A stretch of DNA of 63,541 bases, filler included, from Rhabdomonas costata (lineage: Eukaryota), in assembly GCA_019059605.1 (NCBI GenBank). It is 39 parts of 39 records of this genome, joined end to end, with 100 filler letters (N's around TTAATTAATTAA, not from the genome) between each part and the next. Parts side by side here need not be neighbours in the genome. Positions count along the whole stretch, not along the records: positions 1,634 to 3,166 come from JAHMHO010013629.1; positions 3,267 to 4,796 come from JAHMHO010013630.1; positions 4,897 to 6,423 come from JAHMHO010013631.1; positions 6,524 to 8,057 come from JAHMHO010013632.1; 35 more parts are not named here. One strand, 5' to 3'. Every line of letters starts with the position of its first letter. Within the stretch, counting starts at the first letter, position 1. The notes beneath the pieces were generated by a model that ran no database searches, had not been told where the DNA came from, and worked only from the letters and a program-made list of their open reading frames with translations. The translations under genes and the position numbers were made by a program. Positions 2,087 to 32,536 of this stretch are shown here, piece after piece.

Positions 2087-3282
2087 GTGTTCCTTCCTTC
2101 TCGCTGTACCACTGCTACAAACACCCTCGCATTGGTACAGCTCTTGCAGCCGCAGGGTTGCACGGTTGCGCTTCTTGGAACTCCTTCGATTGCTGTGGGT
2201 CCACGTAGCTCCAGACTTCCTTCTCCACACCCCACTCGACTCACATCCAAATGGAATAGTTTTTTCTTGCTCTTGTCTGCCCTACAATCGATGATGCATG
2301 TGCAGGTTTGATGTAGCAATCCACCTTTTTCCCCCACCTCCATTATATCCCTCCGATTGGATCCCTCTGTGTTAAGTAGTCACAGTGGTGGTGTTTGTCT
2401 GTCGCATTCGGTGTATCCTTGTCGTGTCATCGGCACACATAGCACGCTCACTCGCCCACGGGGCTTTACGTTTTGTGTTGTTGTTATGGTGTGTGGATGC
2501 CCATCACAGGATGAAGAGAATGAAGAGAATCAAGGTTGCCGGGGAAGGATTGGCCCACCGGCTTGGTTTAGCTAACACCATAACGGGCTCCCATTATGCA
2601 CGTACCCTTGATCGCCTCACAACCTCTGAAGTAAAGCTGCATTGAGAACTCCATTGACCAATGTTTTTTCGGAGCTTGTCTTTCCATTCACTCGGCATCG
2701 CCACCAAAAAACGGGCTGCTACTGTGCTCGAGATACGTCGGGTTGAGACCCTCCATTTACACATTTACATCAAGGAATATGTTGATTTCCAAATGCATCA
2801 TCTCATCTGCAAAGATGAACATGAGAGTCAGAGCTGTACGCTGTACGAAAATGGAGGGTCTGTGCTTCTTTTCGCATCTTACATTGTATATTGTGTCCAT
2901 CGGGTTCTGGTCTTTTTCCGGGAAATTGTTTGTCTCACCTGAAGGACTGATTGACCCACGTCGTTCTCCGCACCTCGTTCACATTTCACTTGTTGCATTT
3001 CAGTGGCTTCATTCATTTCGACCCACCTTTGCCGTTTAAGTTCTAAAAAGCTGGTTGTTCGATTGAAGAGTACAATGTGCCTGTTATGTGTGGTTTCTTG
3101 CCTTCTTCAGGTTGTTTTCTTTATACTGTGTTCTATCGTTCACCCTTCTCACCCCCCCACCCCCACNNNNNNNNNNNNNNNNNNNNNNNNNNNNNNNNNN
3201 NNNNNNNNNNTTAATTAATTAANNNNNNNNNNNNNNNNNNNNNNNNNNNNNNNNNNNNNNNNNNNNTTTTTTGTTGCATTTT

Positions 3283-4083
3283 TTACATGTCATCATTTTT
3301 GTTTTGTATTAATGTTGTATGTTTTTCAATAAGTTGATTAAGTTTTTGTTCATGTTCAGTTATTTTTTCTGTAATTTGTACAATAGGAGTAGATCCGGTT
3401 GATTGTTGTGCTTGAAGAAGGTCTATTAATGTTTGAATGGTACTCATGTTTATACTAAATCTTTCTGTTATTTTTGCATCAATATATGCATCTAAACTAT
3501 TTATTTTATCAATTACTTGTTTATCTAATAAATTTAAACGATTATCTACTTTTTGTTGTTGTGATAATAAATAAGAATCTACGTTGATTCAAAACCATGT
3601 ACTTTTTCATTTAATGATATCAATCTAGATTCTAAACTTTTTAAATCATCATAATTTTTTGTTTTTCTTTTCACAGTTGATTCAATAGTCTTTTCAATTG
3701 CAGGACCTATAATATCATCATTAGGATCAAAAAGAATATGTTTGTCATGTTTTAGGATATCACGAATTTGTTCACGAACAGAATTTCTGGATGTGAAAGA
3801 ATAGAGACTATATTATTCATTTTAGTACAGAAAATTTCAGTTTCAGGCACAACACCACCTTTTTGTTTTACGATAGTACAAAATACATTTTCTTTATTAA
3901 CATTAGATACTTTAAGAAAGTTTTTAGAATCATCTACTTTCTTCCGATCATCATTTCTTCGTATGGTTTGCACCATAATTCGTTATTGTCATTAATTTTA
4001 CATATAATATCAGTCATGATATGTTTATTTTTAGTAGAAGGAGGCAGTGGTAATATTGGTTCAATAACACTTACTGATGACAT
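3283..4083 (-). pseudogene. AT-rich hypothetical coiled-coil protein broken by about 4 frameshifts
   Basis: From ATG 4083: MSSVSVIEPILPLPPSTKNKHIMTDIICKINDNNELWCKPYEE / NDDRKKVDDSKNFLKV...LSHP / NSVREQIRDILKHDK...VHGFES / NVDSYLLSQQQKVDNRLNLLDKQ...QITEK / NTEHEQKLNQLIEK. The reading stays protein-like across successive single-base frame changes. Confidence 0.55.
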
Positions 4084-4129
4084 ATATTATTATTTATACT
4101 TTTTTTATGTATTGCTTACATATGAATAA

Positions 4130-4636
4130 ATGGCATCTTCCACTGAGTCAGAAAGTAACGATCGAGAAATAATAGCTGGAGGATTATTAATTTATAGATA
4201 TAGTAAAACATCAAAAATAGAATTTTTATAAATGAAAGTAAATAGACGTAATAAACCAACATATGAAGATTTCGGAGGAACACGAGATAAAAAAGATAAA
4301 ACAATTTATGACACAATAGCACGTGAAGTACAAGAAGAAAGTAATAATGTAATAAGAAAAGAACATGTTAAAAAAATAATAGCATCAAATAAATATATAA
4401 AATGTTATTGTAAAAAATCAAAATACATGTTTATAATTTGTAATATTCGAGATCTAGGTATTTCATTAAAATTATCTAAATTAGGATCTGTTGAATTACA
4501 TGATAATATAGAACGTACATTTCATTGGATATCTCTAGATGAAGTAGTATCAAAAAAGTTTATGAAACAAATAAATTATAGACTGATATGTCAAGATTTT
4601 TTTAAATTTATAAAGTTTATAAAGATAAATACATGA
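4130..4636 (+). pseudogene. Nudix hydrolase (NCLDV-like) with a premature TAA
   Basis: From ATG 4130: MASSTESESNDREIIAGGLLIYRYSKTSKIEFL*MKVNRRNKPTYEDFGGTRDKKDKTIYDTIAREVQEESNNV. It has a Nudix box (GG...D...AREVQEES) and the N-terminal AGGLLIY strand. The in-frame TAA at 4229-4231 splits the domain. Confidence 0.8.
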
Positions 4637-4642
4637 TACTAA

Positions 4643-4650
4643 AAAATTGA
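4643..4650 (+). promoter_or_regulatory. AAAATTGA, mimivirus-type early promoter motif
   Basis: Exact octamer immediately after the Nudix stop. It lies ~45-55 nt upstream of a degraded ORF (SDLR*LLTAQLSALIQLRSALSAQLPKKMS). A chance match is possible in AT-rich DNA. Confidence 0.5.
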
Positions 4651-7600
4651 AAAATAATATTATTGATAGGTCTATATATTTAATATAAAGTAAGGTATGC
4701 TTGGTCTCTGATCTTCGCTAACTGCTTACTGCTCAGCTTTCTGCTCTTATTCAGCTTCGTTCGGCTCTTTCTGCCCAGCTCCCAAAAAAAATGTCGNNNN
4801 NNNNNNNNNNNNNNNNNNNNNNNNNNNNNNNNNNNNNNNNTTAATTAATTAANNNNNNNNNNNNNNNNNNNNNNNNNNNNNNNNNNNNNNNNNNNNTGGT
4901 TTGTGGGCTTAAACTTTCTAAACAGCGCAGCACTTCCTTCACAGGTGTGTTGCTTCACAGAAGAAGTCACCCTTCGTTTTTTTTGCCTTCGCGCGCGCGC
5001 CTAGGTATGCGGAAACAGACAGCAAGCGCCACCTCAGAGAAGGCCCAATCTCAATGGTCGTAAAAGTGCCAACAATCTCGATATAATCTCGTTCTTGTTT
5101 ACTTGGAGATCACATAAAACTGAGTGTTTTTCGGCATCAGAACGTCTCACTCCGCTCCCAGGCCAGCTCCCAATCCACCAGAATGTGTTATAATACTGCA
5201 TTTTTTGGTGTTCAGGGGAGTTAAGCTCAATTCCAAATTTACCCACTTGCTCATCCATTGAGCTACATCGATTCTCGAATCCAAAGCCAATCCCAATTTC
5301 TTGGAGTGGTATGTCCACTGGCCGAATGAAATTGAGGTACTTGGGATATACCCGAATTGAGCTCATTGCTTTCGACCACCTCCGTGACACAAACGTGGTC
5401 TGTTGCAGACAACATACAAACCTTGCGCGTCCCCGCGGTGGGATGCAGGCACGGGTGTGCAAACACACGCAAACCTCGGGCTCCCAGACGGGGCCTTGGC
5501 GAGCTGCGAGGCACCCCGCGGAGTATAGCACCTCGGGTTGTTCCGGAAACCGCTGGATACCGAACTCCACCCCCGCCCTATTCAAATTTCAAGGCACAAG
5601 GTCAGGCACAAGTTCCGTGTGGACTCCAAGCCTCAAAATTTCAAGCCCTCCTGGCTAAGGGCAGATGCAAACCCGAGTGCCAGAAATGAGCATGCGCTCC
5701 ATTTGTTGGTGACGCAACAGCACCTGCTCCGGGGGAAACTTCAGCAACTAATAATACGGCTGGAAACGCACCGCTAAGCCAACGATAACAGTCTGACGAC
5801 GAATATTGCACAAACAGGCAAGGGTATCATGCCTATCATGACCTCATCAATAGAGAAGTTGCGGAAGGTAAACAAGGATTCACCAACGCGTCAGCGGTTT
5901 CACACCCATCCTACGCGCTCTATTAACAGCAAAAGGGTATGCGGAGGCGTGGGGAATGAGATTAGTGCCTGAGAATGCTGAGGTCGCTTCCGGGTTCACC
6001 GCGATGAGGAATCGCCCCCAGAGCCTGAAGGAACTCGGCCCTGTCCAGGGGAAACCGGCAGGGGCAGTAGGGGTACCGCCACTCCACGACCACCTCCACG
6101 TCGGACAGGCGCCCTGTGCCCCCGGAAGCCATAAAGAAAGGAGAGAACACTCCCCTGCGCAGAAAGCTGCGCTAAGAAACATGGATGCAAAATGGCTTGA
6201 GCTGGAGAGTGCGTATGATCATATGAAATAGGGTCAAGTGAAGCAGTGATAAGGGCGAATCAGAAGGGGCTACTGCTTCCCCTGTCAGGACGAGGGTACC
6301 TCGGAATCAAAAAGGTCCGTAGAATGCCCTTGGAACAGTTGCAAAGCTTCTTTAGAGGGAACCCGCCGAGAAGAACGCTCCCTTACACATCGGATATCAG
6401 TATCAGTATGACCACCCCACAACNNNNNNNNNNNNNNNNNNNNNNNNNNNNNNNNNNNNNNNNNNNNTTAATTAATTAANNNNNNNNNNNNNNNNNNNNN
6501 NNNNNNNNNNNNNNNNNNNNNNNACGCTTCATGGTAACTAATCATTATGGGGAGGGAACAGGACCTGAGAAGCGTTTGCACGCGAGAAGGTGAATTATTG
6601 TCCATTTTTTCCATAGTGATGGCCCCTTTTTAAATCGAGTTTTGTCATATGTAAAACTCACGTTATTATCGGAGAATCCTAGCCAGCATGAAAGGTCCCT
6701 CGGACCGAAAATGGAACGGGCTTTCAAAAAGCAGGTAACACGAAACACTTATACGTACTGTGTAGATAATATTAAAATCTTGGCTCACAATCAGCCGGAG
6801 GCCTTCTACAGGGCTTTCCGCCGCAAAGAGTCTCTCTCTGGGTTTGTTGGTCTGCATTGCAGTACCAGCTCACAGACAGACTAGCCAGCCAGATTCATTC
6901 ATTCGGTAGCACTCCCTGCGATCATCGGATTCCCGCTCTGGCAGATAACCACACGCAGCCGCGCTCACCCCAGAGCCGACCGCGGCCGACAGCGGGCGGC
7001 TCGTTTCCCCCCAAAATGATCGCCAGGTCTGGTGGTCCTTAAGTTTTGATGCATGAATGCAAGCGTCGGTGTGGATGGGGGGCAAAACGGATCTGAACAC
7101 AGCGGCGCAGTGAACTGTCGGCATCCGTTTGTGCGGGCATGCGCGGAGAATGGCCTTTCAACGAATACAATAGGTGTCATCACCTTCGTCTTTACAAACA
7201 TTGCCTCGGAAAGGTTTTTATTATCATTAATATTGCAATTTCGATTCAAAATAACGTTTGTCTGCCAGGCGGTGTAGTACCATGCGCTGAACAATCTTCT
7301 TTGATTTGATTTGACGACAAGACCGGGTATCCAAGCGTTTTCTATCCCATCGGGAAGGACGAAAACACTACCGTACCCCAACGGTCGATGCGTACCACCA
7401 CGGTGCATCGAAACTCCAGAAGGCATCGGCACCGTGTGAAACAGCGTGGCCTTTGCAACCCTGTGTCGCGGACCACCAAAGTACACTATTGAGTGCCTGA
7501 GTATTATATAGGTTACAAAGTTTCAAAGTTCAAAATGACCTAACGATATCACTAGATAAAGATTGAATTATGTGAATTTTCAGCTAGCAACAGCGGCCAT

Positions 7601-31004: not shown

Positions 31005-32536
31005 TGACTAAGTGGTGGCTGCAGTGCAGGAATGCTTCGGGTGTCCACTTCAGCCTGGGGCGGTGCTCACAAGAGTCTCTCAGCCACTGCCGCTCTTCGT
31101 CCAGAAGAAGTGCAGCGTGTTCCTGGGTCGGCAAGGCCTGACACACGGTGCAGCTCGAGAACTGCTTTCCGGCAAGAAGAGTCCCCTCTCTGCAGCTGGG
31201 GCACACGAAGACCCTCATATCGTCCGACGCTGCCGTGCACCGGAGGCAGCAACAGATAAACCCATAGTGTGTCTGCAGCCATGCCTGGCGCTGTTCTGTG
31301 GGCCACCGGCGCGGGCAGTAGCACAGCGAGAGCTGGCCAGCAGGGGGGATGGCTGAAATGGAGCGAAGCGTGAGCTTCACGGCGCCACCACGGGGATCGT
31401 CTTCGGTGAAGAAAAAGCAGTTTGGGCTGCACTGATGTTGAATCAGCGAACTTGTGAGGAAAAGTGCGAGACCATCGGAAGTGCACATCGCGTTGGTGTG
31501 CAGCACAGCGGCCATCCTGCTCAGCAGGAATAGGGGGACCTGACGCTGAGAGGACTCAGGCAACGCACGGTGCAGGCCCTGCAGCTTGGAGTCAAGCGCA
31601 CGCAGCTCCTGCGAGAAATTCGCGCAAAGCGCGCAAGCCGCAAGCTCCACCACGCCAGGCTGCCATCCTCCACAAGGATCGCCGCGTGCAGCAATCTCGG
31701 CCAAGTACTTAAGCTGGAGGAAGAAACCGGAGAGAAAACAAATCCTGCATCCTGTCAGTTTTCCACGTGCAGCGGACGGGCGTTCCCTGGCCCTGGAGGC
31801 TGTGTCGCTGCACCGGTCTATTCACACAGGAGTCCCCAAACAAATGCAGTTCCAAAATATGCTACTTCGCTTTGTGCATCTGGAACCCATACCCATGGGG
31901 CGGGTGGCACAACTTGGTTTGTTGTGTGGTGAGTGTGCTCCCAATCCCATCGGCGTCCATCGTGCGAGTACCCACGAAGCGCGCGTAAAAGCGAAGGACA
32001 CCTTCACTTTTCCAAACTCTTCATTGGTGCCTGGTTCCATCCATCCTCTTACCTTCTTGCTGTCCCAACCAAAAAATATGACGAAATATTTTCCAAGTTA
32101 ATCAACTGCGGAGTCAAATGTCCAAATCGTGATCAATGAATGACGCTTTCTGTGGTGGTTGCTCTTTCGTCTCGCCCGAGGCAAAACAATGAGACCCATG
32201 CGGACGACTTCAGTGGAAACAAATGTGCAACCGCTTTGGATCGTACGAAAAGACGATCTGGGTTGAAACACATCAAACAGGACATGGACCTGTTGTGAAA
32301 GTGAAACTTATCGTCCTCTGTAAAAAAAAAACGCACACCACAAACTGCAGAAGCAGGGCTAGAGACAGGTTGTCCTCATCATCCTTAGACAGAAGAAGGG
32401 CACCCCCCAGGAGTTCCCCGGCCTGGGATTGCTGGGGACACCCCGCTGAGCGGTGAACAGCTGTCTTTCCGCACAGAGAACAGCAAGATCGACCCACGCA
32501 TAGCACAGCACTCACCAGACATCTCTGATGCCCAAC
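31005..32536 (-). CDS. SMYD-like SET-domain lysine methyltransferase, partial
   Basis: Exons ~32536..32342 and 31713..31005. Contains LHTNA...GLALFLTSSLIQHQCSPNC...LRSISAIPPAGQLSLCY...RQAWLQTHYGFICCCLRC, i.e. SET motifs plus the post-SET CxCxxC. Confidence 0.85.

Follow-up and report, generated by a model that had tools for sequence, protein, structure and literature searches.

A klosneuvirus-like giant-virus fragment with two broken genes, possibly a young relic, in the Rhabdomonas costata assembly

The stretch of DNA analysed here (63.5 kb, hereafter the window) is made up of 39 contigs of the Rhabdomonas costata genome assembly GCA_019059605.1, and one of these, at positions 3267–4796, carries a short piece of AT-rich DNA of giant-virus ancestry. 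Two genes diverge on it: a Nudix hydrolase gene holding an in-frame stop codon, and a gene without detectable relatives that is broken by frame shifts; near the end of the contig the base composition switches. We put at roughly 0.5 the probability that the contig is a klosneuvirus-like giant-virus fragment with two inactivated genes, a young relic integrated in the genome of the sequenced eukaryote. Under this proposal the source giant virus would belong to the Mimiviridae in the wide sense (Imitervirales), nearest to the klosneuvirus group. The Nudix hydrolase would be cut after codon 33, and three frame shifts, all in one direction, would break the divergent gene of about 266 codons. These lesions would be real mutations in a copy no longer under selection, and a transition from virus to host would lie near position 4695.

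An AT-rich contig with two divergent genes

The contigs of the window, each 1523–1534 bp long, are joined with N..TTAATTAATTAA..N spacers between them. As the 39 contigs are unrelated, the neighbouring sequence in the window gives no genomic context for the contig at 3267–4796. Its guanine-plus-cytosine (GC) content is 25.8%, compared with 43.0–56.7% in the other 38 contigs, in agreement with an earlier interpretation made from the DNA alone (hereafter the sequence-only reading), which had singled it out as the sole strongly AT-rich contig. The same reading had described two divergent genes 46 nt apart; these were recovered, with the minus-strand ATG ending at 4083 and the plus-strand ATG at 4130 (Table 1).

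A Nudix-like gene of giant-virus ancestry

The Pfam NUDIX family (PF00293) matches the plus-strand gene with 19.3 bits when the internal stop codon is read through, and with 19.8 bits for the second piece taken separately, both below the gathering cut-off of 21.1 bits. Relatives at loci L001 (24.5 bits), L002 (22.1 bits) and L044 (28.4 bits) pass this cut-off, and three of the seven aligned family members give a match at E ≤0.01. The REVQEE core of the Nudix box (R65, E66, E69 and E70) is kept in the window copy, and the REVxEE core residues are invariant in 40 of 40 homologues. The canonical Nudix box follows the pattern GX5EX7REUXEEXGU. The first half of the box in this family, G-x5-D-x8-R, is a family-wide variant, one residue off the canonical form and with D for E, and N72 stands where G is expected.

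An AlphaFold model of the protein, built on a seven-sequence alignment, reached a mean predicted local distance difference test score (pLDDT) of 88.2 and a predicted template modelling score (pTM) of 0.84, and predicts a Nudix α/β/α fold. Foldseek returned 63 PDB matches at E ≤0.001, and those listed are Nudix enzymes or Nudix-domain proteins with probabilities of 0.99–1.00. They include Ap4A hydrolase, Dcp2 and NUDT16 (E of about 2e-5 to 1e-4, template modelling (TM) score of about 0.5); a sequence profile search of the Nudix family against solved structures gave a best match of only E 0.067. A role in mRNA decapping would fit the Dcp2 and NUDT16 fold matches and the Pfam Nudt16-like match found for one of the seven family members; since Ap4A hydrolase matches equally well, we only infer a decapping substrate.

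Structural matches among the predicted viral structures of BFVD point to one group of viruses. The five best come from Klosneuvirus, Fadolivirus, Terrestrivirus, Yasminevirus and Hyperionvirus, which we take to be members of the klosneuvirus group within the wider Mimiviridae, and the top match is the NUDIX hydrolase of Klosneuvirus KNV1 (E 4e-17, TM 0.81/0.87, 35% identity). Six database proteins match the gene in sequence, at 38–44% identity and with E-values of 3e-23 to 2e-14. Loci encoding relatives were found in IMG/VR (2), in metagenomes (38) and in prokaryote genomes (1), the last scanned as one genome for each of 185,579 species. The open reading frame (ORF) of the Nudix gene is complete in 35 of these 41 loci and intact in all 35, and in the other six it runs off the contig end.

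The surroundings of the relatives are likewise viral in character. Locus L001, from IMG/VR, belongs to a giant-virus bin of 478,666 bases with five matches over the cut-off to the major capsid protein family of nucleocytoplasmic large DNA viruses (NCLDV), and with an A32-like ATPase recognized by visual inspection of the translation; its Nudix gene is flanked by genes for thymidylate synthase, a photolyase, an XRN exonuclease, a RING protein and a DUF1796 peptidase. Locus L002 has TFIIS, an mRNA-capping enzyme, a NIF phosphatase and a helicase as flanks. Among 124 ORFs scanned from the loci of 16 further relatives, those on AT-rich loci encode dynamin, a class II tRNA synthetase, Hsp70, a Clp protease and ABC ATPases, together with ankyrin, leucine-rich (LRR)/FNIP and EsV-1-7 repeats, protein kinases and an actin-like gene, a cargo typical of giant viruses.

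Individual loci of the set have features of their own. Two giant-virus metagenome contigs with the Nudix family also encode an actin-like protein (L032:12750–13550) and a Hint (intein-type) domain protein (L047:8617–10830). L029 (44% GC) and L040 (51% GC) hold intact Nudix members on long branches, the other contigs having 20–36% GC, and could represent either viral lineages rich in GC or copies carried by cellular genomes.

Low GC content and the lack of introns would also suit non-viral DNA, from an AT-rich bacterium, an endosymbiont or an organelle, and the one prokaryote match, L010, lies on a contig binned as a Beijerinckiaceae bacterium. However, in L010 (1–760) about 240 AT-rich bases encoding a Nudix fragment of giant-virus type give way to genes of bacterial kind with 56% GC (Bmp, a MiaB-like radical SAM enzyme, Dus and a histidine kinase). 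This make-up marks it as a chimera in a low-coverage metagenome bin and shows that members of this viral family can be mis-joined to foreign DNA. L010 is the sole match across the prokaryote species scanned, among which there was thus no genuine bacterial relative of the Nudix gene, and scans of the window gave no tRNA and no Rfam family. Because L010 is chimeric and the context of every informative relative is giant-virus-like, viral ancestry stands, and a non-viral source is very improbable. The test set in advance, for best matches to AT-rich bacteria, organelles or another eukaryote, was run and likewise left the viral origin in place. The Mimiviridae-type origin of the sequence-only reading is borne out, the nearest Nudix relatives being of the klosneuvirus group and others lying on giant-virus metagenome contigs. 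Taken by itself, we hold the viral ancestry of the contig to be highly probable.

A premature stop codon in the Nudix gene

As the sequence-only reading had noted, the Nudix gene is interrupted by a premature in-frame TAA, found at 4229–4231. The residue in this column is hydrophobic in 40 of 40 intact homologues (M in 19, L in 16, I in 3, F in 1 and V in 1), so the position would be buried and a recoded codon implausible. Some protists reassign stop codons, and under such a variant genetic code TAA could be a sense codon. Known TAA reassignments are to Q, Y and E, however, none of which fits a column of M, L, I, F or V. This TAA is also the single one in frame in about 434 codons of 24%-GC coding sequence, and the neighbour gene ends in TAA and the Nudix gene in TGA, both where expected. 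The hydrophobic column, the lone in-frame TAA and the frame breaks in the neighbour gene, which a variant code would leave unexplained, led us to reject this explanation as hardly credible.

Translation of the window copy would stop after 33 residues, and a restart at the Met codon after the TAA would give a protein lacking the first strand and the invariant AGG motif. Going by these features, the copy is most likely inactive. When conserved columns were compared by leave-one-out, the window copy deviated at 6 of 35, the worst of 41 sequences in a tie with L002, most others deviating at 0–3. The N-terminal RPxF motif, conserved in the homologues (R in 38, P in 37 and F in 38 of 40), is absent; the other deviations are L148I and, at two positions where 38 of 40 homologues agree, T52R and F118L. 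With a length of 1.52 the end branch of the window copy ranks fifth among 41, the median being 0.56, and the copy falls in no supported clade. The pattern of deviations and the long branch would fit a mild relaxation of constraint.

Three frame breaks in the divergent gene

The minus-strand gene consists of four abutting open pieces, A to D (Table 1), that form an open-frame run of 801 nt. None of 1000 mononucleotide shuffles reached this length, their longest run being 493 nt, so such open stretches at 24% GC are not due to chance. The sequence-only reading had counted about four frameshifts in this neighbour; the gene is indeed broken, but by three breaks, the pieces lying in frames 0, 1, 2 and 0. 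Each break displaces the frame by a single base, in one and the same direction, and a full-length product would be impossible from the gene as assembled. False frame shifts usually stem from miscalled homopolymers. Between them the two genes hold 21 homopolymers of 5–7 nt, all of them in frame, and the windows in which the breaks must lie have runs of at most 3 nt, which makes homopolymer miscalls unlikely, although errors of other kinds may occur in a contig of low depth. With the Nudix stop codon included, coding integrity in the assembled sequence is lost through one nonsense codon and three frame breaks, none of them in a long homopolymer.

Searches for relatives of the minus-strand gene were negative. 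Nothing was found in IMG/VR close-relative scans with pieces B and C, or among longer proteins searched by word index with pieces B and D, and an ESM Atlas feature search with piece B gave no usable match. With piece C, the sole match in a full HMMER search across 1.84 billion representatives was to a bacterial RTX-repeat protein through its repeats, and we judged it spurious. In the 478-kb giant-virus bin, pieces C and D had no match and piece B had two weak ones (E 0.008 and 0.05) to unrelated ORFs; tblastn of the four pieces against 48 loci yielded no match with E under 0.35.

In ten giant-virus loci, a conserved family of 307–559 residues with no Pfam domain lies directly upstream of the Nudix gene and is transcribed away from it (Table 1), the same arrangement as that of the divergent pair in the window. 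This common gene order is suggestive and may hint at homology of the neighbour genes; with a score of at most 3 bits for a profile of the family against the window's pieces, such homology cannot be claimed. The affinity to the klosneuvirus group holds for the Nudix gene only, its neighbour being without relatives.

A composition switch at the contig end

The last 100 nt of the contig have 47% GC, compared with 24% in the rest. A third-order Markov log-likelihood ratio marks 28 windows, with starts from 3267 to 4617, as virus-like and only the final two, with starts at 4667 and 4717, as host-like. The combination of GC content and strand skew seen in this tail occurs in 344 of 5,469 host windows and in 41 of 26,344 viral windows, a frequency about 40 times higher in the host contigs than in the viral loci. 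In related AT-rich viral loci, 100-nt windows of at least 47% GC number 80 of 22,828 and are clustered in 8 loci. The tail is the best hint of a virus–host junction, and may consist of host DNA.

Two further features of the sequence-only reading, both near this end, proved less informative. Its third, interrupted ORF amounts to an ATG at 4697, four codons and a TGA at 4709, at the point where the composition changes, and there is no evidence of a gene; instead of damage in all three genes, there are two recognizable genes, both broken, and a third that is not demonstrable. The octamer AAAATTGA, invoked as promoter support, is present, but in no more copies than chance gives: the contig holds one against 0.40 expected, at least one copy arises in 32% of shuffles, and none lies in the 46-nt divergent spacer. 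In mimivirus this motif is described as an early promoter, found within 150 nt upstream of 45% of genes (PMC5294985). It is about twofold enriched in the relatives' loci, with 6 copies against 3.1 expected in L001 and 8 against 3.0 in L002.

Table 1 Coordinates of the features of the AT-rich contig, and of the gene family found upstream of Nudix relatives
Feature	Position	Strand	Remarks
Whole contig	3267–4796		3267–4696 virus-like, 24% GC; last 100 nt differ
Nudix-like hydrolase gene	4130–4636	+	168 codons and TGA stop (4634–4636); translation, Pfam, homologues, structure model, fold matches
In-frame TAA, codon 34	4229–4231	+	translation, homologue alignment
Variant Nudix box	4274–4345	+	G50-x5-D56-x8-R65-E66-V67-x-E69-E70-x-N72
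Gene without detectable relatives, about 266 codons	3283–4083	−	four abutting open pieces; ATG 4083–4081, TAA 3283–3285
Piece A, 49 residues	4083–3937	−	frame 0
Piece B, 76 residues	3982–3755	−	frame 1
Piece C, 77 residues	3812–3582	−	frame 2
Piece D, 101 residues	3588–3286	−	frame 0
Frame break 1 window, A to B	3937–3982	−	longest homopolymer 3 nt
Frame break 2 window, B to C	3755–3812	−	longest homopolymer 3 nt
Frame break 3 window, C to D	3582–3588	−	7 nt; longest homopolymer 2 nt
Intergenic spacer between divergent start codons	4084–4129		46 nt
Single AAAATTGA octamer	4643–4650	+	7 nt past the Nudix stop
Terminal 100 nt	4697–4796		47% GC, 66% pyrimidine, host-like composition; claimed third ORF here
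307–559-residue family member	L014:6792–7919		
307–559-residue family member	L017:3377–4525		
307–559-residue family member	L027:6881–7921		
307–559-residue family member	L043:6755–7885		
307–559-residue family member	L015:6654–7802		
307–559-residue family member	L047:6511–7761		
307–559-residue family member	L018:3059–4024		
307–559-residue family member	L032:6899–7819		
307–559-residue family member	L039:509–2185		
307–559-residue family member	L042:1327–3003		

Integrated relic or free virus

The sequence-only reading had concluded that the contig is an integrated, unselected relic. Both recognizable genes are broken, at places outside homopolymers, the RPxF motif is lost and the tail is host-like, all of which speaks for that claim; integration itself is only plausible. 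A number of observations weigh against a relic. No recognizable host gene or repeat is physically joined to the viral part, the tail matches none of the other 38 contigs of the window, and none of those contigs resembles the viral loci: tblastx of the window against the retrieved loci gave 82 hits, of which only two fell outside the contig, both trivial. The contig is only 1.5 kb long, stands alone and keeps its viral base composition, with no drift toward the host. The window copy keeps the residue at each of the 17 columns in which the 40 homologues are invariant, and none of the four pieces of the neighbour gene holds an internal stop, so any decay would be slight. L002, whose gene is intact, is as deviant as the window copy, and the deviations and long branch would fit equally a lineage without close sampled relatives. 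The tail looks equally as a chimeric join would, for which L010 offers a precedent, and it could be a rare GC-rich viral patch of the kind present in eight AT-rich viral loci. The four lesions in 1.3 kb could themselves be errors in a low-coverage contig.

These observations would suit a giant virus that is free, infects the culture or is a contaminant, sequenced at low depth; errors of sequencing or assembly would then account for the stop codon and breaks, and a chimeric join or a GC-rich viral patch for the tail. A short, isolated contig of unchanged composition (25.8% GC), retained family residues, stop-free pieces, a Nudix family already seen mis-joined to foreign DNA in L010 and GC-rich 100-nt windows in eight related viral loci are all in its favour. 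Yet the breaks avoid all 21 long homopolymers, which makes the commonest indel error mode unlikely, and four disabling lesions in 1.3 kb of coding sequence stand against 35 of 35 complete relatives that are intact. The changes at conserved positions, the lost RPxF motif among them, would not be produced by an error rate of 0.3%, and the tail's composition is that of host contigs far more often than of viral loci. We regard a free virus as possible, though unlikely.

A different origin again would be a relic or a virus of another eukaryote in the sequenced material, such as a co-cultured or contaminating protist. Nothing ties the contig at 3267–4796 to the other 38 contigs, and relatives of the klosneuvirus group come from many freshwater, soil and sludge metagenomes. 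No host taxon emerged from the remainder of the window either: Rfam and tRNA scans of its whole length were empty, an ESM Atlas search with a 208-residue host ORF returned nothing, and Pfam gave only one weak match. On the other side, the tail's composition is like that of the other contigs of the window, and a second eukaryote was not seen in the window, no search having been aimed at one. This origin seems improbable to us. Convincing coding sequence is scarce in the other contigs, the weak Pfam match being to a SET domain at 31005–31821 on the minus strand.

For the relic reading, the lesions would then be biological, the tail host DNA and the element integrated. Its most specific form, an integrated klosneuvirus-like (Imitervirales) relic in a euglenozoan nuclear genome and the first genomic trace of that group in that lineage, is doubtful.

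Comparison with known systems and implications

Four NUDIX proteins of the klosneuvirus group, from Klosneuvirus KNV1 (A0A1V0SIF5), Fadolivirus (A0A7D3QW54), Terrestrivirus (A0A3G4ZLL5) and Yasminevirus (A0A5K0UAJ4), match the window model with query-normalised TM-scores of 0.78–0.82, E-values of 4e-17 to 7e-14 and identities of 29–35%. At 156 residues the Klosneuvirus KNV1 protein is near the window's in length, whereas the other three are longer, with 208–472 residues. The window copy shares with them the REVxEE core and the AGG, EDFGG and KY motifs that recur across the 40 metagenomic homologues; unlike them it has a stop at codon 34, no RPxF motif, and the substitutions T52R and F118L. Its end branch is long and no close relative joins it, the best identity being 43–44%.

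Other NCLDV also encode proteins of the Nudix fold, among them Mimivirus L375, vaccinia virus D9 and D10, as well as African swine fever virus (ASFV) g5R, to which the window gene is likened by fold and class. According to PMC8478210, these Nudix enzymes remove mRNA caps and speed mRNA turnover, and hydrolysis of the mRNA cap is reported there for Mimivirus L375. In contrast to them, the window copy is truncated and probably inactive.

A precedent for a giant-virus relic in this host group is Euglena gracilis, for which PMC12455990 describes eight giant endogenous viral elements of the Asfuvirales. Like the window fragment, these are giant-virus DNA with eroded genes in a protist assembly. As described in that paper, the E. 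gracilis elements are large and belong to the Asfuvirales, whereas the window fragment measures 1.4 kb and is klosneuvirus-like (Imitervirales); they have demonstrated integration, flanking host genes, transposon invasion and duplications, whereas the window fragment is known from a 1.5-kb contig alone. The same paper notes that, of giant viruses with discoban hosts, Bodo saltans virus (Imitervirales) alone has been isolated. That virus, a klosneuvirus-group virus of a kinetoplastid, falls in the same broad group as the nearest relatives of the window gene. Among the BFVD matches listed it is represented by one uncharacterised protein of 328 residues, at rank 31, with a TM-score of 0.52 and 16% identity, so the window gene is not specifically like Bodo saltans virus.

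Giant endogenous viral elements are already widely documented. As giant-virus relics are known, including in Euglena, a klosneuvirus-like relic in a euglenozoan would add to a known phenomenon, and its interest would lie mainly in the clue to the host. As it stands, the fragment is a 1.4-kb piece with one recognizable gene, and serves mainly as a flag for further viral contigs. If integration is true, a second, unrelated giant-virus lineage would be known to have infected this host group in the past; it would differ from the Asfuvirales elements of Euglena gracilis, be independent of Bodo saltans virus, and provide a host clue for klosneuvirus-like viruses, which are mostly known from metagenomes only.

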